Source: an archaeon (lineage in GTDB: Archaea > Aenigmatarchaeota > Aenigmatarchaeia > Aenigmatarchaeales > JACQIB01). Taken from it: DNA of 64,000 nucleotides. A program made the translations under genes and the position numbers. Shown in pieces: positions 13,757 to 34,460 of the stretch; the stretch's first letter is position 1, and the number at the start of each line of letters is the position of its first letter. Location: assembly GCA_035291225.1 (NCBI GenBank), contig DATDSO010000004.1, positions 490,765 through 554,764 of the forward strand, given 5' to 3'. The notes beneath the pieces are model-generated. The model saw only the letters and a list, made by a program, of their open reading frames with translations. It was not told the origin of the DNA and did not search any database.

Positions 13757-13977
13757 GGGCCCTTAGCATAGCCTGGATTTTTTGGAAAGGCAAATAGTGC
13801 GGCTGGCTTCGGCGCAGGGTGCAAACTTCGTTTACACCCCGCACCCCTATTATGGGATGCGATGAAACCAGCAGATCGGGGGTTCAAATGAAATGTCGCG
13901 AAGCGATAATTTCGGGAGAATAAACCCTTAAGGAGGGCGGAGCCCTTCTTGGGGTGAAATTCCCTCAGGGCTCACCA
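13757..13977 (+). tRNA. tRNA-Arg (anticodon UCG) with three introns: D-loop (13778-13794), anticodon 37/38 (13813-13866), T-loop 60/61 (13890-13961); CCA encoded
   Basis: Exons assemble to GGGCCCT-TA-GCAT-AGCCTGGA..TA-GTGC-G-GCTGG-CTTCGG..A-CCAGC-AGATC-GGGGG-TTCAAAT..CCCTC-AGGGCTC-A-CCA with all stems base-paired. TATA CAAATTTAAATCC at 13723-13735 (about -27). Confidence 0.6.
13813..13866 (+). ncRNA. Conserved about 55-nt element, copy 1 (identical with the 37/38 intron of tRNA-Arg)
   Basis: CGCAGGGTGCAAACTTCGTTTACACCCCGCACCCCTATTATGGGATGCGATGAAA. About 80% identical to copy 2. Internal hairpin GGGTGCAAAC-TTCG-TTTACACCC. Confidence 0.5.
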
Positions 13978-14126
13978 ATCCACCTTCTCTTTCTTTTCTG
14001 TTCTGAACTTGAAAAAGAAAGAGAATGTAGGCTTCAGTAAAAATCTGAAAGATTTTTACGCGCAGAAAAATTCCCTGAAGGAATTATTTCTGTTACCAAG
14101 AGAAAGAAAAAATTTCATAACTTCTT

Positions 14127-14158
14127 CGTGAAACCATTTTATTTTAAAGCCGACAAAA
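14127..14158 (+). promoter_or_regulatory. Promoter with upstream CGTGAAACC element plus TATA (TTTATTTTAAAG) for gene 14171
   Basis: Near-identical motif repeated upstream of gene 14785. TATA centred about -27. Confidence 0.55.
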
Positions 14159-14170
14159 TTAAATTTTAAT

Positions 14171-14671
14171 ATGCCAGAACAAGCAAAACGTTATTTAAAC
14201 GAGTCATCATTAAAGGATATGAGAGAATCCTCAAAGATTGCATTTGATTGGATTGCCGGGTTTACGCCAGAGAAGAAAGTTAAAGTTTTTTCTTCTGACA
14301 GTGTCAAGTTAACTGAAGAATTTATTACTTTTTGTTTATCAAAGGATACAAAACTTGCGAGAGCGATAAAAGCCGCCAAAGAAGGAAAGGCAACTGCAGA
14401 CGAGAAAGAATCTATTGATAACATGATATTATGTTTGGGTGCTTATCTGGGAGAGACTGTAATAAAGAATTTTGGCGGAAAATGGACATTTGATGATAGT
14501 AGAAAAACTTTTTCAGTAACTGAAATCCCTCGGAATGCCGGCGGGCTTATCACAGTATTTCCAATGTCAAAAATCACTAAAAGATTTTTTCTTGGTAAAG
14601 AGGATTCAATAGCGTGGTGGTATCAAGGTACAGAAATTTCTATAAAAGAGAAAGTTTATTATAAAATTTGA
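14171..14671 (+). CDS. Hypothetical protein
   Basis: 166 aa. Promoter motif CGTGAAACC-N-TTTATTTTAAAGCC at 14127-14158, shared with the next gene. Confidence 0.55.
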   Translation: MPEQAKRYLNESSLKDMRESSKIAFDWIAGFTPEKKVKVFSSDSVKLTEEFITFCLSKDTKLARAIKAAKEGKATADEKESIDNMILCLGAYLGETVIKNFGGKWTFDDSRKTFSVTEIPRNAGGLITVFPMSKITKRFFLGKEDSIAWWYQGTEISIKEKVYYKI

Positions 14672-14740
14672 TGATTCGCCAGAGCCAGATTTTTGAGCAG
14701 AAATCTCAACTAAACCGCTTAGCGTTTTTATCCACCTCTC

Positions 14741-14772
14741 CGTGAAACCGCTTTATTTTAAAGCCAGTAAAA
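14741..14772 (+). promoter_or_regulatory. Promoter with upstream CGTGAAACC element plus TATA for gene 14785
   Basis: CGTGAAACCGCTTTATTTTAAAGCCAGTAAAA versus CGTGAAACCATTTTATTTTAAAGCCGACAAAA. Confidence 0.55.
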
Positions 14773-14784
14773 CCAAATTATTTT

Positions 14785-15390
14785 ATGCCCAAGCGCGCAA
14801 AGCATTCTAAATTGAAAAGAAAAGTTTCTCATGCAAAGCATAAAGTTTCCCGTGCGGCGAAGAAAGTCAGAAAAATCGCGCACAAGAAAATTTCTGTAGT
14901 AAAGAAAGAGATTTCTTCTACGACCAAAAAATTCAAATCCTCTGTTACAGAATTTCTGGAAAAGCACAAAATTTCATTTGAAGTCCAGCCGCACAAGAAA
15001 GATGTTTGGTCCGCAGAAGATATTGCGGCCCAGAGAAAAGTTCCGCTCAAGCAGGTTGTGAAATGCCTGGTTTTGACAGACGGTACAAATCATGTTGTCG
15101 CGTGCGTGCCTGGGGACAGAAAAGTAAAAGCAGGATTAGTAAAGCAAACTGCCGGCACAGGAAAATTAGAATTTTTACACGAGAAGCATTTGAAAAAAGT
15201 TACAGGGCATCCTTTGGGAACAACTTCTCCAATAGGGCTCGCGAGCAAAGTTCCTGTTGTAATTGATGAGCGCTTGGCAAAATTAAAACATGTTTCCATT
15301 TCCAGCGGGCACAAAAAATTTGGAATAAAAGTTTCCACAAAAGATTTGCTGAAAGTTTCCGGCGCGCAGGTTGCGAAGATTTCTGAGTGA
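14785..15390 (+). CDS. YbaK/ProX-type aminoacyl-tRNA deacylase domain protein with Lys-rich N-terminal extension
   Basis: C-terminal about 150 aa resembles the YbaK family (VTGHPLGTTSPIGL...VVIDERL). The N-terminal 60 aa is extremely K/R-rich (possible tRNA-binding tail). Confidence 0.7.
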   Translation: MPKRAKHSKLKRKVSHAKHKVSRAAKKVRKIAHKKISVVKKEISSTTKKFKSSVTEFLEKHKISFEVQPHKKDVWSAEDIAAQRKVPLKQVVKCLVLTDGTNHVVACVPGDRKVKAGLVKQTAGTGKLEFLHEKHLKKVTGHPLGTTSPIGLASKVPVVIDERLAKLKHVSISSGHKKFGIKVSTKDLLKVSGAQVAKISE

Positions 15391-15452
15391 TTTCTGTTTT
15401 TCCAGATAGATTTAAATGTTTTTCAATTTAATTATTACAGTGAGTTGATTAA

Positions 15453-16022
15453 ATGACAGATGAAGCTATCGAAGCCTTTCCTGAGCCAGATCCAGAGCTT
15501 GCTGCACTTATTTCATGTATAGCCCCAATGCAATTTGTGCGTTGGGCCAGAGAAGAAACAAATAAAAAAAGAATAGAACTTCGTGAGGCCCCAATTTCAC
15601 CAACCGATATGGAAGATAGCAGCCTTATGTGGATTCACATAACAGGAATGTTAGGCATGACTGCTGTTGGCTTTGGCAGAGGAGCTCATCAATATTTAAT
15701 TCTGAAAATTGATAATGAAAGAGCAAGGCTTTATGATCCGATGAGGGGCAAAAGGCAAGTGGCTGCATCTGAAGTAAGTTATGATAGCGTTAGATTCTCG
15801 AAAAATATTTTTTCTAGAGCCAATAAAGCAAGAGGGGCTGGTGCGGTATTAAAAGACTTTCTATCTGCTGAAGAATATGAGCTTGATGTTAGTTTGGGTA
15901 GAATACAAGAAGACAGGTATAACTGTTGCCCGCTTGCTCTTTATGCCGCATTGCTTGCAAACGCAAAAAGCCCAAGATACGCACGGGAGCTTAATGTTGA
16001 AGAAATAAAGAGAATCGCCTAG
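15453..16022 (+). CDS. Hypothetical protein
   Basis: 189 aa globular ORF. Confidence 0.55.
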   Translation: MTDEAIEAFPEPDPELAALISCIAPMQFVRWAREETNKKRIELREAPISPTDMEDSSLMWIHITGMLGMTAVGFGRGAHQYLILKIDNERARLYDPMRGKRQVAASEVSYDSVRFSKNIFSRANKARGAGAVLKDFLSAEEYELDVSLGRIQEDRYNCCPLALYAALLANAKSPRYARELNVEEIKRIA

Positions 16023-16063
16023 AGAAGAATTATTTAAATCTATGTTTGTTATCTTTTAATTGG

Positions 16064-16234
16064 GCTCCCATCGTCTAGTCCGGTCAAATTTGCCGAGAGG
16101 ATCAGAGCTTCTCAAGCTCTTGACATGGGTGGCGTATTTCAATTTCAGATTTGCGCCCATGAATTCAAACTAAGTGAAGCAAGTTTCACACGCTTTCAAA
16201 AGCTTCGCTTTCAAAAATCCCGTTGGGGGCACCA
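16064..16234 (+). tRNA. tRNA-Glu (anticodon CUC), intron-containing with unresolved non-canonical insertions (D-loop about 11 nt, T-arm about 80 nt); CCA encoded
   Basis: Acceptor GCTCCCA/TGGGGGC-A-CCA. Archaeal tRNA-Glu D-loop signature TAGTCCGGTCAA. Anticodon arm AGAGC-TTCTCAA-GCTCT. T-stem ATGGG/CCCGT separated by an insert. TATA ATTATTTAAATC at 16029-16040 (-28). Confidence 0.45.
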
Positions 16235-16256
16235 GTTTTATCTAATTTCAAAAAAA

Positions 16257-16496
16257 TTATTTCGCGTACTCTGCTGCTTTTGCGACATAATCCCCGGAAG
16301 AAATATCAGTAGGCTCAATTGTGCAATCAAAGCAATGCTGATTAGTTTGCACGCCACAGTACCTTATTTTTGGATCCCAGCCGATCTTTCCTTCTTGCAG
16401 GCACAACTCCTGCAAAGTCAATTCTATGAAATCCTTCTCATTTTCACTTAAATGAGGGTTGTCGGTATGATGCAAAAAACCAACGCGCCTTGCCAT
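16257..16496 (-). CDS. Small hypothetical Cys-containing protein
   Basis: Likely start MARRVGF. Globular sequence ...HTDNPHLSENEKDFIELTLQELCLQEGKIGWDPKIRYCGVQTNQHCFDC... Confidence 0.4.
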   Translation of the reverse strand: MARRVGFLHHTDNPHLSENEKDFIELTLQELCLQEGKIGWDPKIRYCGVQTNQHCFDCTIEPTDISSGDYVAKAAEYAK

Positions 16497-16546
16497 GATT
16501 TTAATTACCAGAAAAACTTTATAAAGTGGTGTGCAGAAAATAAATA

Positions 16547-17380
16547 ATGCGAAAGCGCACAAATTATTTCAAGATTTTCTTTGTGACAGCAGTTTTTGCC
16601 TTGGCTATATATGCGAGCGTTATTAGCGCGCAGACTTATGGCGGTGGGAAAATTTCGATTCAAGGAAAACTTTCTGACGCAGACGGAAAGCCGCTTGATG
16701 GAAATTTTCAGCTGAAATTTGATTTTCTAAGTGCCGCGAATAATGTTTTGATAAAATCTGTTGGGCCTCAGGCTGTTAGTGTTAAAAAAGGATTTTTCAC
16801 TGCTCAGATTGATCCAACAGGTTTGAGCTTTACTATTCCGTATTTAGTTGATGTTTCAGTTGAGGGGCAGAAGCTTTCTCCAAGTTTTATTCTTTCTTAT
16901 GCGCCTTACGCTTTGAGGGCTGTGAATGCTGATTCTGCGGTTAGTGCTGCAAGTGCTGCTGCGCTTTCTGGGAATTTGGATGCCTCAAAAATTTCTGGTC
17001 AAATCACAAACACGCAAATACAAAATTTGGACGCCTCAAAACTTACTGGCAGCTTAAGCGTTGACAGAATTTCTGATGGCTCTGTAACTGGCGCGAAAAT
17101 AAAGGATGGGGATGTTTCTTTGAGCGATGTGGGGTTTGTTGCCGGCGGGAAAAAATCTGGACAAAATAGCTATGGAATTCAATTTGCAATAGATTCTCAA
17201 TATGGAAGGAGAAATGCTTTTTCTCTCGGAACAACTCCTCTTGTAGTTTGCAGCACAGAAACCGCGAAAACATTTTGTGTAGCTGGAGCAATTACTAACA
17301 ACGGCTTCACTGCGATTGTTTATGATAATAATGGAGCTCTGACATCTGCGCCCATAAATTGGATCGCCATTGGCAGCTAA
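16547..17380 (+). CDS. Secreted beta-rich protein with tail-fibre/collar-like short repeats
   Basis: Signal peptide (FFVTAVFALAIYASVISAQT). Repeats LDASKISGQITNTQIQNLDASKLTGSLSVDRISDGSVTGAKIKDGDVS resemble the short collar repeats of phage tail fibres and adhesins (resemblance only; nothing was aligned). Confidence 0.65.
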   Translation: MRKRTNYFKIFFVTAVFALAIYASVISAQTYGGGKISIQGKLSDADGKPLDGNFQLKFDFLSAANNVLIKSVGPQAVSVKKGFFTAQIDPTGLSFTIPYLVDVSVEGQKLSPSFILSYAPYALRAVNADSAVSAASAAALSGNLDASKISGQITNTQIQNLDASKLTGSLSVDRISDGSVTGAKIKDGDVSLSDVGFVAGGKKSGQNSYGIQFAIDSQYGRRNAFSLGTTPLVVCSTETAKTFCVAGAITNNGFTAIVYDNNGALTSAPINWIAIGS

Positions 17381-17430
17381 TTTCTTCAAATTCAATCAAT
17401 TTAAAAAGTTTACTATACAAATAATTTCCT

Positions 17431-20400
17431 ATGAGTAATGCCTCTGTGGAAAGAAACATCGCCCCAGAAATTTTGCATGAAGCAGCCAGAGAAGCTGGAT
17501 ATTCTCTCGAACAGAGAGATGGGAGATATATTTTGAAAGGAGCAGGAAGAGTTGGAAGCGAAGTTTATCAAAGAAAAGTAGAAGAAGTAATGGCAAATGT
17601 TTCTGATGCTCTTGCAGATAAAGGAGTTTGGAATTCTCCTCAGGCTCATGAAACCTTGGAAACTCTTTCGCATTCTTTTCGCGGGTTTGATCCTGATTCT
17701 CCTGATAATGGAAATTATGGAAGCGAAAGCCACGAAACAAAATGGGGTTTTCCGAGTTTAGTTGCCGGCTTGTTTGGGGCGGCCGCAATTACTGGAGTTG
17801 CTTACGGGCTCGCAAAAGAATTTGCTCCGCATCTGCCGGATTTAGGACATTTAAGTTTTACAATGGGGGCGAGCGGAGAGTCAGCAAGAAGCTATCAGTC
17901 GGGAGATATTCATGATTACCCTGATATGGTTTCTAATTTAGAAAAATTTAAAACAGATTCTCAGGCTGCGATCGCAGATGCAAGCTTGGACCAAACAGAT
18001 GTTCAAAATTTGCATTCGGATATTTCTGATGTTAATGCAGGAATGCAAATTGTTTTTTCTCCAATTAACAATTCTGATTTTAATCAGACTGCGAAACAGA
18101 TTAGAGGCGATATGGAGAAGTTGCAAACACCCAACGAAGGAGACCCCATACCGCTTGTGATCGATCCTGAAAAGAACGCAGCATTCCAATCTCTCAAAAC
18201 AAATCTCTTTCCAAAAGTTAACCAAACTTTAATAGACTGGAAAATCACAAACCGTGGAATTGAGCATCTAAATTATCCTGACAACGGAACTGCCGCGGGC
18301 CAGATGATGAGTAGCCTGCTTTCGGAAATTTCTCAGGACTATGGATTTTACAGGCAAGTTGAACAAACTCAAAAAACAATAACAGGAATTTCTGATTTGG
18401 GAAAAGATGACGCGCATACAGATTTGCCGCTGAAAGAATTTCTGAGAAAACTTTACACAGACACGCAGGAAATCCAAACTTGGCTGAATCCTAATGACCA
18501 ATCGCAGAGAGCAAAGAGCAATCAGATAGATAAATACTTCTCCCCATTTGTCGCGCCGTCGCAAGCAAATAAATATGCGCAATTTTTTGAAACAACTGCC
18601 CAAGTCTTGAACAGCGCTTTGAGATTAATAGAAACTCCTGATGAAAATGTTCCGTATCCTGAAATGGATTTGACTCCGCCGCACATTATTTCAATAGAAG
18701 GATTGCTGGAAATCGAAGCAGGGACAGTTTGGAATGGAAGAATTTTTGCAGATGACCCCGGTCCGATAAGAACTGCAGGAGTTGATTATTTCAGTATTTC
18801 TGTTTTAAAACCTGACATCAGAACAGATTCTTTGAATGTCAGCGCAAACGGAATTTTCAATTATACCCCAGATTTGGCTGGAGATTATTTGTTTTCTATT
18901 TTCCCAACAGATAAATCTGGAAACAGAGCTTCAAATAATTTTGATTGGAACTTTTCTGCTTGGAAAGACAAAAAAGCTCCAACAGTTTCGGTGAAAAATG
19001 ATTTCAGAAAAAGTTTGTATGAGAACGAAACCCAGTGGATAAATTTCACAGCTTCAGATGACAGAACTGGGATAAGTGAAATCAAAGTTTTGTTTGGCGG
19101 AAATTATTACAATGCTACACCAACAGGTGGAATTAATTATCAGGCAAAATTCAAAATTGGAGCGCCGGGGAATAAAACTGCGCAGATTTTCGCAAGAGAT
19201 GGAAGGAATAATACAGCAAACGCTTCTATAAATTTTTCTGTTTTGGAAATCCCAGACACAATACCGCCTAAAATTTTCGAACTGCAGGGAGTTTCTGAAG
19301 GGCAAATTCTTGCGCCGGGAAATGTCACAATTACTGCAGGTGCGCGCGATAACATAATAGATAGCCAGAGGGGAAACAAGCCGCTCGACAACGTGGAATT
19401 TATTTTAGATGGAAAGGTTTATGCTGGGGAGCATATGCTTGATGACTGCACATTATCTATCTGCAATGAAGTTTGGATGTTAAGGACAAATCTTGGCGAG
19501 GGAAAACACACCATTTCTGCCCGCGCATATGATTTGGCTGGAAATGTCGGCGTAGATTATCCTACAATTAACTTCACTGCTAAAGAGCCTGTGCCGGATA
19601 ATAAAAATGTCCGTTCTGATGGAAGCCCGAGTCCGTTGCCATTTGTCGCCCTCGGAGCTTTGGGTGCAGTTGGGGGCGGATTATATCTCGGCATGAGAGA
19701 TGGGGTTGGAATAGAAAGAGTAGTTTATGTTCATAATGATGGAAGAATGATAAAAAGAAGGAAATGGGTTGATACTTCTGGAACAGATGAGGAAATAGAA
19801 ATGGGAATGATTAGCGCCGTGGGCACATTTATCAGAGATGCTTACGGCGGCGCAACAAGAAAGCATCAAATAAGCATACCTCTAAAAGATGGTCGGCTAC
19901 ACAACACAAATCTGCTTTTTGCGCGCGGAAGAGATTCTACATTAGTTGCAAGTGTTTCTGGAAGTGATGGCGAAAATGTTGTCAGAAGAATGGAAAAGGC
20001 AATCTATCCTTTGGAAGAAAATTTCAAGCCCGCTGAATGGGATGGAGATATAAATCCTGGCAGAACAGCGATGGTTGATCCATTTTTAGAGGGGATAAAA
20101 TCTCCTACAGTTCCTGATAGATTCTCAGTACTTTGGGATAGAATTTCTGGAAGGAATAGTTATAGAGCAGGAAAGCCAAGAGGAACAGTTGTCCTGACGC
20201 CAGCGAGAAGAGGACCATCCCAGAGGGAAATTGAATTGGCGCAACAGCTTGCGGCAATGCAGCAACAACTCGCAGCAGCAGAACAATCTGCTGGCGAGGC
20301 AATGATATTGAGAAGCCAGCTTGCGCAGAAAGAAGAGCAGTTGAGATGGTTTGAAAGCGAAGTTTTCAGATTAAATTCGGTTGCGCAGGATATAAGCAGG

Positions 20401-20529: not shown

Positions 20530-20562
20530 AAACTTTTTAAATTGCCGCATGGAAACTGATTC

Positions 20563-21774: not shown

Positions 21775-21805
21775 TCTTTTTAAAATCAGAAAGTTAGTTC
21801 TTCTA

Positions 21806-25020: not shown

Positions 25021-28000
25021 TCATTCTGAGTTTGTGTGAGGCACTCTCCAAGGGCGCGGACTAACCGAAGAAATTATTTGCCTGCGATAGGTGAGAATTA
25101 AAATCAATACAACCACACCACCGATTATTAAAACAAGAGTTCCAAAATCAATCGGGGGAGATTCTTTCCCGCTTTCTTGTGTTATTTTCCCGCTTTCTAC
25201 TCTAGGAACAATCTTTCTGATATTAGATGTTGTAATTTTTGGGGCTGTCGGGGGAGTTGCGCCCGTTGGTGCTTCCTTTAGGCTGACGGTAAAACTTTTT
25301 GTTTCTGTTTTCACTTCATTTCCATTCGAATCCTTCACAACCAAGTACCACCCAATATTCCCTTCAATAAGATTTTCATTTTTCCATTCGAATGCTGTTG
25401 AAGCTTCTAGACCATTAAGATTTTGAGATGCATAGAATTTGAAATCAGCATCAACAGGTTCTTTTATGTAGATGGTCGCTGATTCGAGTTCTATATCATC
25501 GCGCCCTTTGAATCTCAAAAAGTTAGACCAGCTTTTGTAAATTTCATCTGCCGACTGTCCCAACTCGAGAATTTCTGGCGCTGCGATGTCTTCCCCTACT
25601 CCTATTTCAGGATCTGATTCACCCACATTTCCAAATACATCTTCAACTTTCATCTGCCAAGTTATATTTTTTTCAGATATCTTCGGCATTTTTTGCTCGA
25701 AGTTCACCCAGCCTTCTGTGATGGGTTTTTCAAAAACAAATGTCTGAACTTTATGCAGTCCCGAACCAAAATCCATCCAAAATTCTGCTTTTTTCAATGG
25801 GCTGTCATCTTTCCAGTATTTTGAGAAAACAATATTCTGATTTGGTTTTGCTTTTTGTGGCGAGCGGTTTTCTGTCCATTGAGGAGGATTCATCACACGA
25901 ACTTTCTGATTTTTCAATGCCCGATTTCCAGCAGAATCGACTGCCGTGAACGTGAAAAGCAGTTCGGAATTTTCTTTCAGGTTAGAATCAGTAACATATT
26001 CAACTATATCACAATCTTCGGTGCCGCTGCTTGTTGTAAGGTTTATGTCTTTTGAGAAGAGTCTGCTGCCGCCGACAAGAGCTTCAATTTTAGAAGTCGC
26101 TGAAGCGCGATTCCAATCACTTACGCAAATTTTAATTTTAAGCGCCTGTGAGGATGAAACCTTTTCAGGCAGGCCTTCAAATCTTATTATAGGAGATTCG
26201 GAATCTTTTACTTTAAAATACTTTTCATCCGTCTCGATGGAATTTCCAGACGCATCCCATGCTTTTATTTTCCATGAAACAATATCGCCTGGCATAAGGT
26301 TTTCTTCGGCCGAGGGTTTTGGTAAAGTTATTTCAAAATCCGCTGCTTCAAGTGAACCCGATGGAGTGGTCCCAGACAGAAGTTTCAGGGTTCCATCAGA
26401 AGTTGTTGCATTAAGTTTTAACATGGCTGCTACAAGAGCGCCGCAATCTGAATTCGGTTCTGTATAATTGTTTTTGAAACTCGCTGAAAAAGAGATTTTA
26501 TCGCCCGGATTATATTCTGCTGCATTCGTTGAAGTTAGGTCCAGATAACTTATAGATTTCCTTTCTGCACAGGACGGCTTTACATTAAATGTTCCTGAGT
26601 AATCGGTCTGTATTGTGTTTCCTTCTTTATCAGAAAGATATAATTTCCATTCGAATTCTGTCTGTCCGGAAAGCTTTTGCGAGTACCATGAAGCCGGAAT
26701 TTCCAAAGGAAAATTCCAAACTTTTTTTCTTATGAGATTAAAAGATTGGACATCTTCAAAGTTTCCCCCGATTTTTCTTGCCTGAATTTTCACTAATCCC
26801 AATTCAACATTGTCCGATGCTGTGAGAAAGACAGAAAAGTTCGCTCCATCAAAAATTATTTTTCTTACACTGTCTATTTTTTCAACGCGCGGCGGTTCAA
26901 AATCTTTCACAATTATCGAACCGTAGATAGGAACGTTTGCGAAATTTCCATCATTATCTTCTGCAGAAATATACCAAATTACTTTGGAATTGCTTTTTGC
27001 ATCAGCTGGAATCTGGACTGCGAATTCGATTACCTGCTGCGGGTTGTTGTTTTGCAATGAAAATGGAGTTCCGTCGCTTTCTTTTTCAGTTCCATCTTGT
27101 TTTACATAATCAGCATAAAATCTGATTTTTTTCAGTGACAGGTTGTCAAAGCATTTTGTGTGAACAATGACCTTCTCTCCGCGCCCCGCCTTTACAGGAG
27201 CGCTATTTATATCGCCTTCGGTGTTGTAGTAGATGGAGCAGGTTGGCGGCTGCACATCTTTGACTCTAAATTCAGTTTCAAACTTCTCGAAATGTCCAGC
27301 AAAGTCTTTAACAAAAACTTTATATGTGAAATTTTGTTCCTGTTGGTCACCTCCGAAAACTTTTTGCCTGCAATCTCTTCCGCAGGAAAATTCCCCATCA
27401 AAGATATTTGTACCAATAGGTTTTTGACTTCCGATTTTTGATATGGATTCTTCCAAGCTTCCAGAAACAACAAAGACTTCAATAGAGCCCAACTGACCTA
27501 TCAAATCTCCCTCTGTTTTATAATCATCTTCACAGGAAATGCGGAGTGTGGCTGGATCGTTTGGGGTAACGCTGTTTGATTCACCGCGGCCAACTGAAAG
27601 GACGCAACGTGGTGGTTTTGTATCTGTGTCTGCAGGTTTGCCTACGATTGAAACATTAGTTTCATAAGAGTTTTTTTTGCCTGCGGTATTTGAAGCAGAA
27701 ATTTTGAATTTGAGATCTTTGCCTACATCGGAGCTCCTTGTTTTGCAGTTCTTGAATTCAACATTGTAGAGTGAAGGTTGTTTCGCTACAATCTGTGTCG
27801 AGCCGCATCTTTGTTCAAGATTTGCTGTTGCAACGATGGTGTCAGAATTTAGTTTTCCCACATCTTCCCGAATTGAAAATTTAACAGAAAAATCTGTATC
27901 ATACCATGCTGTTGCCGGCGCGCTTAACAAAATAATTTCAGGCGGGGTTTTATCGGCAACTGCAGGAACTGTTTCCTCAACTCTTTCCTCTTTTTTGCTT

Positions 28001-28806
28001 AGGCTTGCCGGCGCGCACAGACCACGGCCAGTTGGATTATTCCATACACATTCATCTCCGTAATTCTGACAAAATCTTCCGCGGCCACATGGAATATTTC
28101 CCATCTCGCTGATTGAAGAAAGGTTTATTTGCGATGCATCTTCGAAGTCCACTATAGTTATTGGAACTTTTATCTGGGTAAATTTGGGCCCCAGAGAGCT
28201 AGGTAAAAGCTCTGAGTCAATGAAATCTTCTCGCGGTCCGCATCCCGCCGTTACACAATAAGCCCCCGATTCTGCAGGTAAAATAAAATTACCGGCTTCT
28301 GCATCAAGGCCTTCTTTTCCCGAGCTTGTGTCGGTGTCTTTACAATCCTTCCACCCAGCAATGTTGCATCCATCGCCCATAAATTGTTTCATAACAAGAG
28401 CATTCATGCCAAAATCCCCACCCTCACTCGGACAAAAGCCCTTTACAATTGAAATTCCTGCACGCATTTCTTTTTGAGAACCTTTATTGCAGTTTAGATT
28501 GAATGCATTTATCTTGACATTTTCGCCAGCATCGAATATTTTGAGGTCACCTGTTGGGTTGAACTGGCGCTTTGAAGGCGGAATTATTTCAATTCTATGC
28601 CTGTCGGTCGCAAATGTAAAAAAGCCCGCCGACTCAGAGAAACTTTCTTTAGCCGGTGCAGGAGCGTTGAGATGATTTTTTCCAAAGCTGGCGAAGTCTT
28701 CAGAATTTCCGAAAATAAATGCGGCCGCAGCAAAAATTGCAATAACAATTGTTGCAATAGCAACCGGATTGTGTTTTTCAGGTACTCCACTGCTCATAGA
28801 CATCAT
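25021..28806 (-). CDS. Giant (1261 aa) cell-surface protein: N-terminal signal/TM, Cys-rich head, many Ig/fibronectin-like beta modules, C-terminal TM anchor
   Basis: N-terminal hydrophobic IATIVIAIFAAAAFIF. C-terminal LVLIIGGVVVLILILTYRRQ with a short tail. Long beta-rich repeats. Confidence 0.8.
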   Translation of the reverse strand: MMSMSSGVPEKHNPVAIATIVIAIFAAAAFIFGNSEDFASFGKNHLNAPAPAKESFSESAGFFTFATDRHRIEIIPPSKRQFNPTGDLKIFDAGENVKINAFNLNCNKGSQKEMRAGISIVKGFCPSEGGDFGMNALVMKQFMGDGCNIAGWKDCKDTDTSSGKEGLDAEAGNFILPAESGAYCVTAGCGPREDFIDSELLPSSLGPKFTQIKVPITIVDFEDASQINLSSISEMGNIPCGRGRFCQNYGDECVWNNPTGRGLCAPASLSKKEERVEETVPAVADKTPPEIILLSAPATAWYDTDFSVKFSIREDVGKLNSDTIVATANLEQRCGSTQIVAKQPSLYNVEFKNCKTRSSDVGKDLKFKISASNTAGKKNSYETNVSIVGKPADTDTKPPRCVLSVGRGESNSVTPNDPATLRISCEDDYKTEGDLIGQLGSIEVFVVSGSLEESISKIGSQKPIGTNIFDGEFSCGRDCRQKVFGGDQQEQNFTYKVFVKDFAGHFEKFETEFRVKDVQPPTCSIYYNTEGDINSAPVKAGRGEKVIVHTKCFDNLSLKKIRFYADYVKQDGTEKESDGTPFSLQNNNPQQVIEFAVQIPADAKSNSKVIWYISAEDNDGNFANVPIYGSIIVKDFEPPRVEKIDSVRKIIFDGANFSVFLTASDNVELGLVKIQARKIGGNFEDVQSFNLIRKKVWNFPLEIPASWYSQKLSGQTEFEWKLYLSDKEGNTIQTDYSGTFNVKPSCAERKSISYLDLTSTNAAEYNPGDKISFSASFKNNYTEPNSDCGALVAAMLKLNATTSDGTLKLLSGTTPSGSLEAADFEITLPKPSAEENLMPGDIVSWKIKAWDASGNSIETDEKYFKVKDSESPIIRFEGLPEKVSSSQALKIKICVSDWNRASATSKIEALVGGSRLFSKDINLTTSSGTEDCDIVEYVTDSNLKENSELLFTFTAVDSAGNRALKNQKVRVMNPPQWTENRSPQKAKPNQNIVFSKYWKDDSPLKKAEFWMDFGSGLHKVQTFVFEKPITEGWVNFEQKMPKISEKNITWQMKVEDVFGNVGESDPEIGVGEDIAAPEILELGQSADEIYKSWSNFLRFKGRDDIELESATIYIKEPVDADFKFYASQNLNGLEASTAFEWKNENLIEGNIGWYLVVKDSNGNEVKTETKSFTVSLKEAPTGATPPTAPKITTSNIRKIVPRVESGKITQESGKESPPIDFGTLVLIIGGVVVLILILTYRRQIISSVSPRPWRVPHTNSE

Positions 28807-28880
28807 AAACAGATTTAATCGGCGCGTTTATAAAGATTTGGAGATTTCTTGGAAGTTTTATCAGAAGATTTACTACATAT

Positions 28881-30239
28881 TTAAAAATCTCGATTGCCTA
28901 TATGTGAAACTTTTCCAACCAAGTGTTTGTTCTCAACTCCGGAAATTTTCGCATCCACAAACTCCCCCAACAAATTCTTTTCGATTTCAATCAGCACAGG
29001 CCTGTAAGCAAAATTCCTTCCGATGAATTGCCCTGCTGATTTCCCTTTTTCTGAAACCAAAATTTCTCCCGACCATCTAATCCAAGCCTTATTTTTTTCC
29101 GCAGAAATTCTGTCGCATAATTCTGTGGCCGCGCGCGTCCTGTCCTTCACAATTTCTGTTGGAACTTTTTTCATTTTTGCCGCTGCTGTTCCACCCCTAT
29201 GACCATAGGCGGAAATATTAACATAATCAAATTTTATTTTTTCCAGAACTTTTAGAGTATCTTCGAATTGCTTTTCTGTTTCTTCTGGAAAGCCCACGAT
29301 TATATCTGTCCATATTGTAATCTGCGGAAACTCTTTTCTGAAAGCGGAAACTATTTTCTGGAATTGTGAAACAGTATAATGGCGGTTCATTCTTGCCAGA
29401 ACTCTGTCATTTCCAGATTGAATTGGCAGATGCAAAAATTTGTAAATTTTTTCGCTCTTGTAAGCTTTTATAAGTTGCGGAAGAATTTTCAGAATTCCGT
29501 CGGGGTTTGCCATTCCATTTCGTACGCGAAAGTTTCCTTGTATCGAGCAAACATTTTTTAAAAGCTCTGGTAGGCTGAATGCACTTCTATCAGAACCATA
29601 AACGGCATTATCCTGTGAAGTGAGCCAGACTTCCCTGCAACCCTGTTTCAGCGAATTTTTTACGTCTTTAACAATCGCACCCTGAGAAAAACTTTTTGTA
29701 TTTCCTTTCGCAAGCTTTGTTGCGCAAAAGGTGCAGCGGCTGTTGCAGCCATCCAAAATCTGAACAATATTGACAATTGGATTGAAGCGGATTTTTGGAA
29801 GCAAAGGCTTTTCTAATTCTGATTTTTCTAAAAATTCCACGCGGCCGCCGGAAAAAGTTTTTTGCGCAATTTCAACAACTTTATCAATATTATGCGTGCT
29901 CAACAAACTTGCATTCGGAGAGGCTTTTAAAATTTTTTCTTTTCCAGGTTGAGCCATGCAGCCGGCAACAATAATCTTTTTGCTTCCATTGAGCTTGCGC
30001 AGGCGGTGCAAAATTTTCTGCTCGGTCACATGCTTTACATAGCAAGTATTAAGCAAAATTGTATCAGCTTCATTTTCATTTTTCACGATTTGAAAATTTT
30101 CTTTTGCAAGCAGGCCAGCCATTGCCTCGCTCTCAGCTTGGTTTGCAGAGCAGCCATAAGTTTCCAGAAAAATCTTTTGAGGGTTTTTCTGCCTCGCAGA
30201 ATCTTTCAGATTCTGCCGATCCAGAAGAATTTTTTTCAT
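28881..30239 (-). CDS. Radical-SAM methylthiotransferase, MiaB/RimO/MtaB family (likely tRNA t6A37 methylthiotransferase)
   Basis: N-terminal MTTase domain (ETYGCSANQAESE), radical SAM CNSRCTFC, C-terminal TRAM. Confidence 0.88.
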   Translation of the reverse strand: MKKILLDRQNLKDSARQKNPQKIFLETYGCSANQAESEAMAGLLAKENFQIVKNENEADTILLNTCYVKHVTEQKILHRLRKLNGSKKIIVAGCMAQPGKEKILKASPNASLLSTHNIDKVVEIAQKTFSGGRVEFLEKSELEKPLLPKIRFNPIVNIVQILDGCNSRCTFCATKLAKGNTKSFSQGAIVKDVKNSLKQGCREVWLTSQDNAVYGSDRSAFSLPELLKNVCSIQGNFRVRNGMANPDGILKILPQLIKAYKSEKIYKFLHLPIQSGNDRVLARMNRHYTVSQFQKIVSAFRKEFPQITIWTDIIVGFPEETEKQFEDTLKVLEKIKFDYVNISAYGHRGGTAAAKMKKVPTEIVKDRTRAATELCDRISAEKNKAWIRWSGEILVSEKGKSAGQFIGRNFAYRPVLIEIEKNLLGEFVDAKISGVENKHLVGKVSHIGNRDF

Positions 30240-30245
30240 AGCAAT

Positions 30246-30812
30246 CTATTTTTCTTTCTGCTCTTTCGCGGGCTTTGAAATGCGGCCTTTTTCATAAGTG
30301 TGTATGAGCTTCTCAAGTTCAAGCGCGATTTTTCTCGGGTTTTTAATACCAAGCATTTGAATTGCTTCCGAGCCTGATGTTGGACCGATGGCAATGGTAC
30401 CGTAATTCAAAAACCGCGCGAAGTATCCCTGCTTTACATTCACATCTGAAATGCTGCTGAGGAAAACGCTGTCACGTTTTTTTTGTATTATGCCATGCTC
30501 AATTACAACTTGGCTCGGCGTGATTTTGTATGAGTGGCTGAAGCGGAAAACTTCGACATAAACTATAAAAAATGCGATTACACCGAAAATCGCGTATGCA
30601 GTAAGTGCATGCATTGCAAAGCCAAGAGCCGGCAGGAAAAAATATAGAGCTGCGAAAACCGCTGCTATCAAATAATCTTTAAGAAAAAATATTCGGCTGG
30701 GTTTTATGCTGTAGATTGGAACTTCAATTGGCATGGGAATTTTTGATTTTCTGAAAATATAAATACATGAAAGTGGATGAGTTTCTATGCAATCTGCGAA
30801 AATCGCAATCAT
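30246..30812 (-). CDS. Membrane protein with bacterial-type PH (YdbS/DUF304-like) domain
   Basis: Two TM helices then a PH-like beta domain. Confidence 0.6.
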   Translation of the reverse strand: MIAIFADCIETHPLSCIYIFRKSKIPMPIEVPIYSIKPSRIFFLKDYLIAAVFAALYFFLPALGFAMHALTAYAIFGVIAFFIVYVEVFRFSHSYKITPSQVVIEHGIIQKKRDSVFLSSISDVNVKQGYFARFLNYGTIAIGPTSGSEAIQMLGIKNPRKIALELEKLIHTYEKGRISKPAKEQKEK

Positions 30813-31602
30813 CGGCGGCTCTGGAGTTTACGCTATTGAGGATTTGAAAAATGTTGAAGAGGTTTCTGTTGAAACTCCATTTGGCCCGCCATCGGACAAA
30901 ATTATTCTCGGAGATATTGGGAGCAGGCGAGTTGCTTTTCTGAGCAGGCACGGGCGCGGGCATATTTTCCCGCCGCATTTGGTGAATTACCGCGCAAATA
31001 TTTATGCGCTGAAAAAACTTGGAGTGGAAAGGATTTTTGCTGTAAATGCGTGCGGCTCTCTAAGGGAAGATTTTGTTCCGGGAGAAATTGTAATACTTGA
31101 CCAATTTATTGACTGTACGAAATCGCGTGTGTCAACTTTTTTTGAGGGAAAAAATAAAGAAGGCGAGTTCAATGGAGCATGCCATATTTCTGTCGCAGAT
31201 CCATTTTGTCCGGGCTTGAGGAAAAAATTAATTTCAGCGGCGGAAAAATTAAATATTTCGCACAAGCCTGCCGGCACTTACATTTGCATTGAGGGCCCGC
31301 GTTTTTCAACGCGCGCGGAAAGTAAAGCTTTCCAAAAAATGGGCGCGGATATTATTGGAATGACTCTTGTGCCGGAAGCTGTTTTGGCAAGAGAAATGGA
31401 AATATGCTATGTTTCGCTCGCGCTCAATACAGACTATGATTGCTGGAAAACTGACCGCGAGCCTGTTTCGCACCATGAAGTTTTGGAAATGGTTAAGGGA
31501 AATGTTTCAAAAGCAAAAAAACTTTTATTTTATGTTATTCCAGAGCTGCCGGAAGAGCGCGCGTGCGGCTGTGGGAAAGCGCGTGAGAATGCGATGATGT
31601 GA
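30787..31602 (+). CDS. mtnP: 5'-methylthioadenosine/purine nucleoside phosphorylase
   Basis: PNP/MTAP family motifs (IAIIGGSGVY, NACGSL, IGMT). C-terminal Cys cluster as in archaeal MTAP. Confidence 0.88.
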   Translation: MQSAKIAIIGGSGVYAIEDLKNVEEVSVETPFGPPSDKIILGDIGSRRVAFLSRHGRGHIFPPHLVNYRANIYALKKLGVERIFAVNACGSLREDFVPGEIVILDQFIDCTKSRVSTFFEGKNKEGEFNGACHISVADPFCPGLRKKLISAAEKLNISHKPAGTYICIEGPRFSTRAESKAFQKMGADIIGMTLVPEAVLAREMEICYVSLALNTDYDCWKTDREPVSHHEVLEMVKGNVSKAKKLLFYVIPELPEERACGCGKARENAMM

Positions 31603-31705
31603 TCTGTAGAAAGCTTCTTAAAGATTTTCTTTCTCGGCAGCTGACGTTGCAGTGTCAGATAGGTTTAAATAGAATCAAATCAATTACTATATTGAGGTAA
31701 TAAGT

Positions 31706-32572
31706 ATGTCACGCCAGATGATTGAAAACGCCACCTTTTACCTGACTCCTGAGCTTACCAAAGTGAGGGAGAAGGTAATTCACAGCAGCGGCGAAGAGAA
31801 GTTTGCGGCAGAAGACATTTTGAGAAGATATGAAGAGCTTACCCAATCAGAGGAAAGAATAAATAAGGATATCTTATATCGCTTGGCGCAAGATGTAGTC
31901 GGCTTTGATGCGCAGGATTGCAGATTCGAAAGAAGTGAGGAATATAGAAGAGTTAAAGATGATTTATACGAGCAAAGAGGAATGCAGGAGAAAAAAATAG
32001 AAGAAAATAAAAAACGGGCGCTGGATGATTTGACTGCCGAGAAAACAATGTGGGACAAATTCAGCCCGTGGGCAACGAGAGGAATAGCGGCGCTTGTCGG
32101 TTACTTCGGTACAAAACTTGCTGTGGCGGGCGGAGGTAAAGTAGTTTCTGACATTGAAGACCTGCCAGTCATGACAGCTCTTGCTGCGGTTGGAGCAATT
32201 GAGGGAGGTCTGCGAATTTCCAGAAATCGCGCTCAAAGGAGAATAACGAATAATTATTATAAGCAGATGCAGGAGCTTGAAAAAGAATTTTCAGAAGGAA
32301 CATCAAATATTGATTCTTGGCTTTCTGAACAAAAAAGAAAAATATATTTACGCTCAGATGAAAAGCTTAGAAAAGTTTATGAAATATGTTATGGTCTCGA
32401 GGCGGCGAAAAATTTACCACCACAGAGCGCGGTTGAATTTGATGAAGCAGCGCTCCATAAGCATCGTGTGGAGGATGAAGCTCCGGAAGCTGCAGCTTTG
32501 AAAAAAGTTAGGCCGGAAGACATTTCAGCAAGAGCCAGGGCTATAAGGGAAGATTTAAAAAGAGGGAAATGA
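31706..32572 (+). CDS. Hypothetical coiled-coil protein with central hydrophobic segment
   Basis: 288 aa. Confidence 0.55.
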   Translation: MSRQMIENATFYLTPELTKVREKVIHSSGEEKFAAEDILRRYEELTQSEERINKDILYRLAQDVVGFDAQDCRFERSEEYRRVKDDLYEQRGMQEKKIEENKKRALDDLTAEKTMWDKFSPWATRGIAALVGYFGTKLAVAGGGKVVSDIEDLPVMTALAAVGAIEGGLRISRNRAQRRITNNYYKQMQELEKEFSEGTSNIDSWLSEQKRKIYLRSDEKLRKVYEICYGLEAAKNLPPQSAVEFDEAALHKHRVEDEAPEAAALKKVRPEDISARARAIREDLKRGK

Positions 32573-32583
32573 AGTGATTAATT

Positions 32584-32955
32584 ATGGGGCTTTACTTAAT
32601 TGGTTTCTCAGATTCGCCAAAAAGGTCGTCAGAAGTTGTGGGTGAAACAGTTAAAGCCATACGAGAGGCTCAGCAGGCGTTGCGAGAAAGATTAAGACCT
32701 TACGAAGTTGTCGGACAACCGGGAGTTTATGCAAATGGCGCACATAAAGAAACCGTCGCAGCTGGCGGAACCGCCCCTTACTTGAGGCCGGCGCAGGCAG
32801 ATCCTCAAGCAGAAGCATGCTCCACAGAACTTATGAGGCAGATAAGAGATTTGAGGAAATATTGCGAAAGAGAGCAGATACCGATTCCTACTGAACTTGC
32901 AGATGCTGAACTCACTCAAAGAAGAATGTGCGGCCTGCTCGCAGATGGATTGTAA
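32584..32955 (+). CDS. Hypothetical protein
   Basis: 123 aa. Confidence 0.45.
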   Translation: MGLYLIGFSDSPKRSSEVVGETVKAIREAQQALRERLRPYEVVGQPGVYANGAHKETVAAGGTAPYLRPAQADPQAEACSTELMRQIRDLRKYCEREQIPIPTELADAELTQRRMCGLLADGL

Positions 32956-32958
32956 TTT

Positions 32959-33645
32959 TTATTTCTCCACCAATCTCGCGTCCGCAACCAAATATCCAGA
33001 AGAAGTTTTTCTGTCCCAAATTTTTTCTTTTGCTTCAAAGGAAATTTTTTTATTGTAAAGCGGGCAGTCCAGAACAAGAGATTCAAATTCCCCGCCCTCG
33101 CCCACCGGGCTTATTCCGGTTTTTTTATTTAGCTCTAAAAGTTCCTCAACTGCTTTTGAGTCAAGTTCGCGGCCGAGCCATTTTTCTCCAAGACCGTCAG
33201 CGGAAACGCTTACGAAAATAATTTTAAATCCCTCGGACAAAAGCCCGAGCAAATGCTCTTTCGGGTTAATTCCCCAGAGCGGTGCTATCATTTTCAATCC
33301 AAGCTCATTGCAAATTTTTTCAATTCTGCTTCCTTGGTATTTTGAAGAAAGCCCGCCGCAAATAATTCCCTCAACATTAAATTTTTTCTTTGCGTTGGAA
33401 ATTAAATTTTTCAAATCCTCAAGCTCTTCCTCTTTTTTTCCCGCGCTCTCGGCTGTCAAGTGCGGCATGCCCATTGCTTCTGCCGCGAGCCTGCTGAGCT
33501 CAATGTTGCGCGTGTGAAACATGTAGCTGTCTTCGTTCCTGCTGAAAATTGTAAGGCAGGCGCAAACCTCATGCCCCATTTTTTTCGCAAGATAAATCGC
33601 GCGGACGCTGTCTTTCCCGCCGGACAAAAGAGCTGCGCATTTCAT
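32959..33645 (-). CDS. dph6: Diphthine-ammonia ligase (diphthamide synthase), PP-loop ATP pyrophosphatase
   Basis: N-terminal SGGKDS PP-loop, MJ0570-like sequence. Confidence 0.8.
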   Translation of the reverse strand: MKCAALLSGGKDSVRAIYLAKKMGHEVCACLTIFSRNEDSYMFHTRNIELSRLAAEAMGMPHLTAESAGKKEEELEDLKNLISNAKKKFNVEGIICGGLSSKYQGSRIEKICNELGLKMIAPLWGINPKEHLLGLLSEGFKIIFVSVSADGLGEKWLGRELDSKAVEELLELNKKTGISPVGEGGEFESLVLDCPLYNKKISFEAKEKIWDRKTSSGYLVADARLVEK

Positions 33646-33699
33646 AGAAAATTTTATTGGAGAAGAAAGTTATAAAGATTTTAATTTCTCCTGCCGCGT

Positions 33700-33732
33700 G
33701 AAAACAAGCTTTATAAATCCCCTTTATAAACC
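33700..33732 (+). promoter_or_regulatory. tbp promoter: CGTGAAAAC element followed by two tandem TATA boxes (GCTTTATAAATCC, CCTTTATAAACC)
   Basis: Located 30-55 nt upstream of ATG 33761. Confidence 0.5.
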
Positions 33733-33760
33733 TTTATTGCGCAGTAAAATCGGTGTTCTC

Positions 33761-34309
33761 ATGAGTTATCATATAAAAATTGAAAACGTTGTTGCTTCTG
33801 CAATTCTCCACTGCACAATAAAGCTGGAGAAAGTTGTTTCCATGATGGAGGGAATTGAATACGAGCCTGAGCAGTTTCCGGGGGTTGTCTACAGAATGAA
33901 AAATCCGAAAGCGGCTGCGCTGATTTTCGGCTCGGGAAAACTTGTCTGCACAGGAACAACAAGCCCCGGAATGGCAAAGGAAGTTGTCGCGCGAGTTGTG
34001 CGCGACCTGCGAAAAATCGGTACAAAAGTTCCGCATAAATATGATGTGCGCATGGAAAATATTGTCGCGTCCGCAAAAATTGAGCAGGAAGTAAATCTGG
34101 ATGAGATCGCTTTCACTTTGGAAAATACTGAATATGAACCCGAGCAGTTCCCAGGATTGGTTTTCAGAATGACTGAGCCGAAAGTTACTTTCCTTCTTTT
34201 CACTTCCGGAAAAGTTATCTGCACGGGGGCGCGCTCTGTTGCTGATGTCGGGCGCGCTGTTGAAAAATTGGATAAGAGACTAAGGCTGATGAAGAGGACT
34301 GGGAAGTAG
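33761..34309 (+). CDS. tbp: TATA-box binding protein
   Basis: Two direct TBP repeats (VENVVASA... / MENIVASA...). Tandem TATA boxes at 33708-33732. The track ORF begins upstream at 33698, but 33761 fits TBP length and the promoter. Confidence 0.9.
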   Translation: MSYHIKIENVVASAILHCTIKLEKVVSMMEGIEYEPEQFPGVVYRMKNPKAAALIFGSGKLVCTGTTSPGMAKEVVARVVRDLRKIGTKVPHKYDVRMENIVASAKIEQEVNLDEIAFTLENTEYEPEQFPGLVFRMTEPKVTFLLFTSGKVICTGARSVADVGRAVEKLDKRLRLMKRTGK

Positions 34310-34404
34310 AATTTCTATTAACCACTCTTCCGCCTCAACTTCTTATGGAAAGAAAACTTAAATACTTTGAGCCCGCAATAATTTCTGTTTGAATGAAGCT
34401 CGCA

Positions 34405-34460
34405 CGCAGGGTGCTCACTTCGTTCACACCCCGCACCCCTATCATATGCGTGTTCGCAAA
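34405..34460 (+). ncRNA. Conserved about 55-nt element, copy 2 (free-standing in the tbp-mcm spacer, own TATA about 40 nt upstream)
   Basis: CGCAGGGTGCTCACTTCGTTCACACCCCGCACCCCTATCATATGCGTGTTCGCAAA. TATA AACTTAAATAC at 34356-34366. No tRNA exons around it. Confidence 0.45.

Follow-up and report, generated by a model that had tools for sequence, protein, structure and literature searches.

How can one short sequence sit as an intron in a tRNA gene and again, with no tRNA around it, in front of mcm? The question is raised by a 64,000-nt stretch of archaeal DNA (the window; positions below are window coordinates unless a locus label such as L004 is given). A hairpin-forming element, named module A here, occurs in this window within a tRNA-Arg gene (copy 1) and within the spacer between tbp and mcm (copy 2, or c2). 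According to the homologues of its MCM and asparaginyl-tRNA synthetase (AsnRS), the window belongs to a metagenome-assembled genome (MAG) of the Aenigmarchaeota (DPANN), and the identical MCM is found on an ENA contig (ERZ27254754:k141_49268) and on at least 24 other contigs. L-labels denote loci of other genomes and metagenomes that were compared with the window. The close relatives are GCA_053529595.1, GCA_053529815.1, GCA_053536755.1 and the population in JGI metagenome 3300025317 (Ga0209541), with 87-94% identity to the window in MCM and 90-94% in AsnRS. L004, L005 and L006 served for the comparison upstream of mcm, and L108, L112 and L113 for that of tRNA-Arg downstream of AsnRS.

A hairpin core shared by a tRNA intron and the tbp-mcm spacer

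The window has just two matches to the 38-nt pattern CGCAGGGTGCnnACTTCGTTnACACCCCGCACCCCTAT, 13813-13850 and 34405-34442, each on the plus strand; 100 dinucleotide shuffles gave 0 matches. The two cores (13813-13853 and 34405-34445) are identical at 37 of 41 positions. The original prediction, made from the letters of the window alone, had put the identity of the two copies at about 80%; the similarity is real, and over the full spans it had compared the value is 76.7% (46 of 60 aligned columns). Module A has the form CGCAGGGTGC-apical stem-ACACCCCGCACCCCTATnAT-TGCG, and the central hairpin that had been described can be folded in both copies. The observation of a module shared by a tRNA intron and the tbp-mcm spacer is real and non-trivial.

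In the unspliced 64-kb window, ARAGORN (default, -i) reported 0 tRNA genes, and an Rfam scan at the gathering threshold gave 0 matches; at E<=10, Rfam returned only noise at both module loci and no match to the module. After in-silico removal of three introns, ARAGORN called a tRNA-Arg(TCG) gene with an encoded CCA at 13757-13977 on the plus strand, whose orthologues lie 3' of AsnRS in the relatives. Intron 1, in the D-loop, is about 17 nt long (13777-13793, approximate borders) and has a BHB-like (bulge-helix-bulge) motif, gcatagcct[GG|A]tttttt...tggaaaggc[AA|A]tagtgc; this splice was accepted by ARAGORN. Intron 3, after the T-loop, is about 72 nt long (13890-13961, approximate borders) and unrelated to module A, and its removal is required for the ARAGORN call. 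Intron 2 (13813-13866) lies at position 37/38 and consists of module A copy 1 (core 13813-13853) followed by a 3' segment that pairs with the anticodon loop. A relaxed BHB is found at its expected splice sites, gctggcttc[GG|C]gcaggg...gatgcgatg[AA|A]ccagca, with a central helix CTTC/GATG paired at 3 of 4 positions (one U.U mismatch), an outer helix of 5 bp and an inner helix of 3 bp. Since in-silico removal of the three introns gives a tRNA-Arg(TCG), 13813-13866 is a genuine 37/38 intron, as had been predicted. By the cloverleaf and the relaxed BHB, copy 1 is, as far as its sequence tells, a BHB-type tRNA intron, and we infer that it is spliced.

The intron differs between close relatives. The orthologous tRNA-Arg(TCG) genes of L108 and L112 have no 37/38 intron, and that of L113 has one of 16 nt that is different from module A, so that none of the three carries the module at this site. 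Module A is found elsewhere. The GTDB species genomes and the JGI metagenomes were each scanned once with exact-match patterns; apart from many chance matches, this brought to light four more true copies. In L007, module A is the 59/60 T-loop intron of a multi-intron tRNA-Gln(CTG). L035/L108 has it as the 59/60 intron of a tRNA-Leu(TAG) gene, and the tRNA-Arg gene of that genome, which is without a 37/38 intron, lies 4 kb away. The other two, L070 (= L137) and L098, lie outside tRNA genes. A covariance model built from all six copies (model R1) scored them at 64-72 bits, with 64.6 bits for copy 1 and 68.8 bits for copy 2 over 34404-34448. The same model found no more diverged copies in the window, the relatives' loci or the viral matches. 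Scans of IMG/VR gave no true copy of module A or of repeat family B (described below), and a viral origin of either was rejected on the result of these scans.

One intron sequence is thus present in tRNAs of different identity and at different positions: Arg(TCG) 37/38, Leu(TAG) 59/60 and Gln(CTG) 59/60. The 3' parts of the three intron copies are homologous as well (..TGCGATGAA, ..TGCGAAAAAA and ..TGTGAATT). In each of them, a GAA/GAU(G) past the basal helix faces an exon TTC (C32-U-U-C35 or U54-U-C56), which would make both the anticodon loop of tRNA-Arg(TCG) and the T-loops usable sites. We read module A as the conserved hairpin core of a small family of putative BHB-type tRNA introns that switches host tRNA and position within one Aenigmarchaeota lineage.

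CGCA is present twice in module A, giving two possible pairings. In one, a basal helix CGCA/TGCG is followed by GGGTG/CACCC and the apical stem; in the other, two hairpins stand in tandem, GGGUGC..ACACCC and CGCAC..GUGCG. The core stems are invariant, so covariation cannot decide between the two. Covariation, an exchange of A-U for G-C in each case, is confined to the apical stem and, between c2 and L098, the basal helix. Over the six copies, variable columns number 1 of 29 in the core and 10 of 13 in the apical part (Fisher p = 2e-6). This constraint on the core could reflect selection at the level of the element, for example on a recognition site of its mover, or a function for the host.

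The tbp-mcm insertion and palindromic repeat family B

The spacer between tbp (33698-34309) and mcm (34494-36524) is 184 nt long. As originally described, no tRNA exons are seen in it, and a TATA-like box lies upstream of copy 2. Rfam gave no match in the spacer even at E<=10. This mcm TATA box, CTTAAATA at 34357-34364 on the plus strand, is kept in the relatives (alignment A1). Between it and the ATG lies a lineage-specific insertion of about 99 nt (34391-34489, plus strand), a single unpaired arm of repeat family B that carries the module A hairpin. The insertion has a 5' GCTCGC box at 34398-34403 (plus strand; consensus of alignment A7 and regular-expression match), the module A core at 34405-34445 (plus strand; pattern and model R1), and a 3' part at 34453-34486 (plus strand) with a TTCGC box, a CTGATGTGT motif and an A-rich tail, homologous to L098, L137, L136 and a tRNA-Asn intron of the window. 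The whole block is missing in L004, L005 and L006, whose flanks align (alignment A1). These three loci keep a nearly invariant stretch of about 85 nt in front of mcm, TATA box included, and the ATG follows 29 nt after that box. The module is missing from the tRNA-Arg orthologues, occupies other tRNAs and positions elsewhere, and reached the mcm spacer as a lineage-specific insertion, all of which supports the suggestion of a mobile or duplicated intron.

In this lineage, tRNA-Arg and a leaderless L004 gene both have their first base 22-23 nt after a TATA box. From the 22-nt spacing, the mcm start is predicted near G34387, at the 5' edge of the insertion, and the mcm transcript would most likely carry a 5' leader of about 107 nt derived from the insertion. 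This leader folds more stably than shuffles (z = -2.5). The A-rich tail of copy 2 was rejected as the site of a second promoter, whose start would fall 4-12 nt inside the mcm open reading frame (ORF); the tail is too near the ATG to be a replacement promoter. A split-tRNA or hidden-exon reading of copy 2 was also discarded, since its flanks are the conserved mcm promoter. The 5' flank of c2 (UGAAUGAAG) can pair over 9 bp with the c2 apical loop, and neither L098 nor L070 conserves this pairing.

Flanks common to the non-tRNA copies c2, L098 and L070, and missing from the intron copies, are (T)GAAG..GCTCGCr on the 5' side and yTCGC-n-(C)TGAT(A)TGTGA followed by an A-rich tail on the 3' side. 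The L070 3' flank is identical at 24 of 25 positions to part of the 37/38 intron of a tRNA-Asn gene in the window. These flanks belong to repeat family B, with the consensus GCTCGC - hairpin GCGCAGAG-TAAA-CTCgTGCGC - GCTCGC - AAyTAATrTGTG - A-rich tail. The B hairpin is 98.3% paired with one G.U, shows compensatory changes in 8 of 12 pairs, and its signal collapses when the partners are slid. A covariance model of the B arm (model R2), built on the ten copies of alignment A7, gave 6 matches in the window, of which 5 are arms besides c2, and 22 in the relatives' loci (about 93 kb), many as overlapping inverted pairs. It scored the non-tRNA copies at 33.3 bits (L137), 30.2 bits (L098) and 21.3 bits (c2).

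An inverted B pair forms a palindrome of about 100 nt in a divergent intergenic region (39573-39632 plus strand, 62.3 bits; 39624-39682 minus strand, 41.1 bits). The pair folds as a three-way junction at -41.4 kcal/mol (z = -3.2). A single arm (37818-37876, minus strand, 48.8 bits) lies between an eIF-5-domain gene (PF01873) and an AAA gene, and is kept at the same place in L004 (14582-14641) and L005 (5676-5737). Inverted pairs in the relatives are found at 15700-15812 and 2706-2814 in L004 and at 5625-5737 in L005, and such pairs measure about 100-120 nt. Further, a B-containing segment of about 165 nt after tRNA-Arg is present in L112 and L113 and absent in L108. The arms are scattered in both orientations over unrelated intergenic regions. 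With dispersed copies and inverted pairs, family B would class as an intergenic repeat resembling REPINs (doublets of repetitive extragenic palindromic, REP, sequences) or MITEs (miniature inverted-repeat transposable elements).

Copy 2 has the parts of B in order: GCTCGC box, hairpin, second (G/T)(C/T)TCGC box, ATrTGTG and A-rich tail. Inside the insertion, the regular expression matched at 34398-34475 and model R2 at 34418-34481, where its 21.3 bits (E 0.016) are marginal. On the order of these parts, we assign copy 2 to family B. The module seen originally in the spacer is real, and it is embedded in a B repeat rather than standing free as a bare copy. Within this B frame (L070, L098 and c2), a canonical BHB around module A was looked for, and only weak, non-conserved motifs were found; copy 2 has no convincing BHB that would release it.

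The 23S rRNA leader gives a second view of the frame. The L070 locus runs from phosphoglycerate mutase through a 173-aa gene and about 0.9-1.0 kb of conserved non-coding DNA to 23S rRNA, and here the B frame sits just downstream of an A/T-rich TATA-like box. The hairpin inside the same frame differs between populations. It is module A in L137, and AAAAATTATTTTTT with extra sequence (an A/T hairpin) in L136, the two loci being identical in the 173-aa gene and in the roughly 215 nt preceding the element. L139 and L142 have TTGAGTAAACTCAGA, the L139 hairpin being GAGTAAACTC. L146 has TGAAAAAATAATTTTTCA, an A/T hairpin near-identical to that of the window's tRNA-Asn intron. Module A and the canonical B hairpin share the basal helix GCGCA/TGCGC and differ by GAG/CTC to GGG/CCC, by an apical stem in place of the loop, and by CGCACCCCTATnATa in place of a bulged G. 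Module A thus reads as a possible expanded version of the B hairpin.

Several observations were made beside these two sites. At mcm, the tbp-mcm spacer is an insertion hot spot: the tbp-mcm interval of L004 (8163-10000) has three extra genes (141 aa, 69 aa and PIN), bracketed by GAATTTCTATT directly after the tbp stop and again before the mcm promoter, like an attachment site or target duplication, and that of L005 (713-1867) has an extra ParB_N-like gene. At 34311-34350 and in the relatives, the roughly 85 nt upstream of mcm (AATTTCTATTcACCACTCtcCCGCCTCAAyTTC...) are almost invariant at 87-94% MCM identity, which exceeds the need of a TATA box and may mark a regulator-binding or origin-associated element. 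The window MCM has 676 aa and is intein-free; many Aenigmarchaeota MCM homologues (P0040, P0041, P0054, P0065, P0092 and others) have about 1040-1180 aa with intein/LAGLIDADG domains.

At the 23S locus, the non-coding interval between the 173-aa gene and 23S (L139 6523-7555, L138 6523-7444, L142 2973-3948, L146 ~975-1560, L145 ~4250-4880) contains long, highly conserved blocks, for example TTGTCATGCCAACGAAAGTTGGTTGACTCGCCCAAACCGTACGGGCGAAAAT, and no Rfam family matched it at E<=1; an undescribed RNA, or else a structured leader of unusual length, may lie here. Upstream of the TATA-like box (L136 ~935-1020, L139 ~6610-6690), an invariant block GCTGAATAGCTCTGCTAGATGATGCTTCTTCGCGGTTCATTCC...CCGTGATTTTCTTCC holds sequences that resemble a C box (AGATGATGC) and, about 45 nt away, a D box (GTGA), and may be a C/D-box sRNA gene. 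The B element of L136 lies between long inverted repeats (~1040-1250), AAATGAAGAACTT / AAGTTCTTCATTT and AATATGTGTTGAA / TTCAACACATATT, and L098 has a similar end, CATAATTTAG...CTCTTCATTTTC; given these repeats, a B arm may belong to a larger composite palindrome of about 200-250 nt. Downstream of the 23S gene start, ORFs with faint LAGLIDADG_3 Pfam matches (L139 8132-8656, L146 2282-3187) suggest rRNA introns that bear homing endonucleases; one of these ORFs is closely followed by a B arm (L139 8879-8938).

Explanations for the spread of module A

The explanation that we favour, with moderate confidence, is that module A belongs to a non-autonomous repeat whose hairpin can stay in tRNA loops without harm, since it makes up a relaxed BHB there and is spliced out. 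At the DNA level, B and A elements would behave as non-autonomous repeats that spread or recombine. A hairpin landing in a tRNA loop just 3' of TTC(R)(R) would create a relaxed BHB. The known landing sites are directly after CTTCGG in the anticodon loop of tRNA-Arg(TCG) and directly after GTTCAAA in T-loops; the basal helix (GCA/TGC) and the following GAA/GAT(G) would pair with the exon TTC to build the motif. The splicing endonuclease and a ligase would excise the hairpin, so that the insertion, we propose, would be tolerated and persist as an intron. Outside tRNA genes, the element would persist as intergenic or leader DNA. Copy 2 would be one unpaired B arm with an A hairpin, inserted in this lineage only at about the mcm transcription start, and we infer that it is tolerated there rather than useful.

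Several points weigh against this explanation. The core is far more conserved than the apical loop, beyond what junk would show, and may have an RNA or protein-binding function. The census is thin, with only six copies of module A, found only by exact-match patterns. No transposase or recombinase was found in the 40 window ORFs scanned against Pfam, and the Pfam listing of the L001 locus, which covers the central part of the window, shows none either. A target-site duplication at copy 2 is only suggestive: ATTTCTGT / ATTTCTAT flank the copy, the relatives hold one ATTTTCTAT, and reading the flanks as a duplication needs a 6-bp difference from the relatives. The putative derivation of A from the B hairpin is read from short common strings (GCGCAG.. 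/ ..TGCGC) and the common frame. In addition, c2 and L137 lie 25-40 nt past a TATA-like box and are probably transcribed for that reason, and copy 2, fixed in at least 24 assemblies where an essential gene begins, might serve some use instead of being merely tolerated.

A bolder form of the repeat explanation, drawn by analogy and in our view doubtful, would make family B itself the direct source of endonuclease-spliced introns, an archaeal counterpart of introners. B would have seeded the Arg 37/38, Leu and Gln 59/60 and Asn 37/38 introns, the rRNA leader and the mcm leader, and the mcm-leader copy would be spliced through a motif at the borders of the insertion. It is rather unlikely that module A is instead a host-beneficial small RNA or protein-binding hairpin, made from the excised intron (possibly as a circle) and from leader transcripts, with the repeat as its vehicle. 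The contrast between the invariant core and the variable apical part would suit such a role, and so would the pairing kept by compensatory changes in the apical stem and basal helix. An intron copy and a non-tRNA copy co-occur in the window genome, and in Ga0209541 two such copies agree fully in the apical loop. TATA-like boxes lie just upstream of c2 and L137, and basal-helix G.U pairs in L098, L137 and L007 would favour the sense strand; such sense-strand G.U pairs disfavour antisense transcription of the non-tRNA copies. Against a small RNA, no Rfam family matched even at E<=10, no C/D or H/ACA boxes lie at the needed spacing, and no complementary target of module A was found in the window. 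In copy 2, ATGAAGC and CTGA are 62 nt apart with no D'/C' boxes, L070 has no D-box-like CUGA/GUGA, and the C/D-box reading of copy 2 was rejected; by eye, copy 1 has no C/D boxes, and we saw no tandem G.A of an H/ACA or kink-turn RNA and no 3'-terminal ACA, with no match in Rfam either. The closest relatives lack the module at both loci, its genomic position is not conserved, and no processing signal is evident around c2. The idea that a small RNA is released from both contexts, like the C/D-box sRNA in a tRNA-Trp intron, finds no support, given the missing boxes, the missing Rfam match and the want of a convincing BHB around copy 2.

Copy 2 invites two readings of its own, neither of which we think probable. 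It might be a BHB intron of about 105 nt in the mcm transcript, excision of which restores a short leader, like the cbf5 pre-mRNA introns of Crenarchaeota; we regard this as a long shot. The best BHB-like motif of the region lies exactly at the borders of the insertion, caataattt[CT|G]tttgaa...aaaaaagat[TT|C]tatgcc, with a central helix of 4/4 and outer and inner helices of 3 bp each, and of 5000 shuffles that preserve composition only 16 gave an equal motif within 5 nt of both borders. At their 5' ends, the insertion and the tRNA-Asn intron are homologous (TTGA-GCTCGCG), and splicing would give ...ATTTCT|CTATG, near the relatives' ...ATTTTCTATG. However, all ten pairs of the border motif are A-U or G.U, the motif is not in the minimum free energy fold, and with a predicted start at about 34387 its 5' half would not be in the RNA. 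L070 has no equivalent, L098 has a differently placed BHB-like match with its 5' flank cut by the contig end, and the simple relaxed scanner that was used for BHB motifs finds 27 of them in 181 nt. No more credit, in our judgement, is due to the idea that copy 2, taken over from the 23S leader, acts as a cis-regulatory 5' leader and is kept because it modulates mcm expression, for example through a coupling to rRNA transcription or through structure-dependent translation. In its favour, the promoter-proximal part of the 23S leader locus looks similar to the c2 flank (A)ATGAAG...GCTCGC, all 24 contigs read with this exact MCM have the insertion, and the stable leader fold noted above agrees with the idea. 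Yet the relatives with 87-94% identical MCM do without the insertion, only one arm of the palindromic element is present, the position is not conserved in any other genome, and B arms are scattered in both orientations through unrelated intergenic regions. Chance, or a simple recent segmental duplication, we consider next to impossible. The window holds two copies only, and the flanks of copy 1 and copy 2 differ; the shuffles lead us to expect zero chance matches, and the search for further copies brought four more in other genomes and contexts, all within the 64-72 bits of model R1.

Other disrupted tRNA genes and the gain of archaeal introns

Further tRNA genes were found by eye in the larger unannotated gaps of the window and then spliced in silico. 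A tRNA-Asn(GTT) gene at 60238-60516 (minus strand; in-silico splicing and ARAGORN) has a 37/38 intron of an estimated 137 nt that is largely an inverted pair of B arms, at 60421-60479 (minus strand, 62.2 bits) and 60350-60403 (plus strand, 34.3 bits; both with model R2); one or more further introns lie in its T arm. A tRNA-Met(CAT) gene at 40713-40861 (plus strand; in-silico splicing), initiator-like by its A1-U72 acceptor, has an intron of about 70 nt just past the T-loop that is unrelated to A and B; ARAGORN and Rfam miss this gene unless it is spliced. As at least three tRNA genes of the window (Arg, Met and Asn) are missed by ARAGORN and Rfam, the tRNA sets of such MAGs are under-called. 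Elsewhere in the window, about 15 same-strand ORFs run from ~46295 to 58680 (plus strand), almost all without a Pfam match, with one nucleotidyltransferase at 56399-57511. The run coincides with a raised GC skew and, at 48-52 kb, with a peak of the AT skew; an integrated element is one possible explanation, a surface-protein island of this lineage another.

In Thermoproteales, introns of nearly the same sequence that sit in different tRNAs and at different positions have been reported under the name of 'intron transposition' (PMC4090602, PMC4033280), and disrupted tRNA genes with relaxed BHB motifs have been associated with DPANN endonucleases (PMC5829648). Introns have been said in general terms to be transposon-derived (PMC11782384; bioRxiv 10.1101/2023.02.21.529479). 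Module A resembles the Thermoproteales introns in its near-identical copies, predicted to be spliced by the endonuclease, in tRNAs of differing identity at canonical as well as non-canonical sites, in rapid turnover between related genomes, and in having no intron-encoded protein. Transposed tRNA introns of Thermoproteales were reportedly described by Fujishima et al. in 2010 (summarised in PMC4090602 and PMC4033280). Unlike those introns, module A has a DPANN/Aenigmarchaeota host, and its core also lies outside tRNA, in an intergenic palindromic repeat, in the 23S leader and before mcm. In the literature, leaving that 2010 paper aside, we found no description that links a tRNA-intron core to a dispersed REPIN/MITE-like repeat with copies in an rRNA leader and an essential mRNA.

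REP/REPIN and MITE elements are short (50-120 nt) intergenic repeats with a conserved hairpin and flanking boxes, often in inverted pairs. Family B is like them in size, hairpin, boxes, inverted pairs, both orientations, and presence or absence between close relatives. It differs from them in that no cognate transposase (REP-associated tyrosine transposase (RAYT)/IS200-like or DDE) was identified in the ORFs scanned, no clear target-site duplication was seen, some members lie inside tRNA genes as putatively spliceable introns, and one hairpin variant, module A, is far more conserved. Introners are MITE-like eukaryotic elements that create spliceosomal introns. By analogy only, B is like them in that a repeated non-autonomous element would yield introns, its insertion supplying or completing the splice signal; the machinery here would be a protein endonuclease acting on a BHB and not a spliceosome, and domain of life, size and copy number differ. 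With the C/D-box sRNA of the tRNA-Trp intron, module A shares a structured RNA module in a tRNA intron and related sequence outside tRNA genes, and unlike it has no RUGAUGA/CUGA at 12-nt guide spacing, no C'/D' and no Rfam C/D match. The BHB introns of archaeal mRNAs (cbf5) and the pre-rRNA processing stems are endonuclease substrates outside tRNA and are relevant to the mcm-leader and 23S-leader copies; unlike these, copy 2 has no convincing BHB, and the copies are not in a coding region.

This set of loci offers a rare snapshot of the way in which archaea may gain tRNA introns. One intron core is seen in three tRNAs at two positions, next to empty orthologous sites at 90-94% AsnRS identity, and that core is homologous to a dispersed intergenic palindromic repeat. 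If the explanation that we favour is true, the gain of BHB introns would be tied to a concrete class of repeats, and the TTC-adjacent insertion sites and the mcm-leader copy would be testable substrates.

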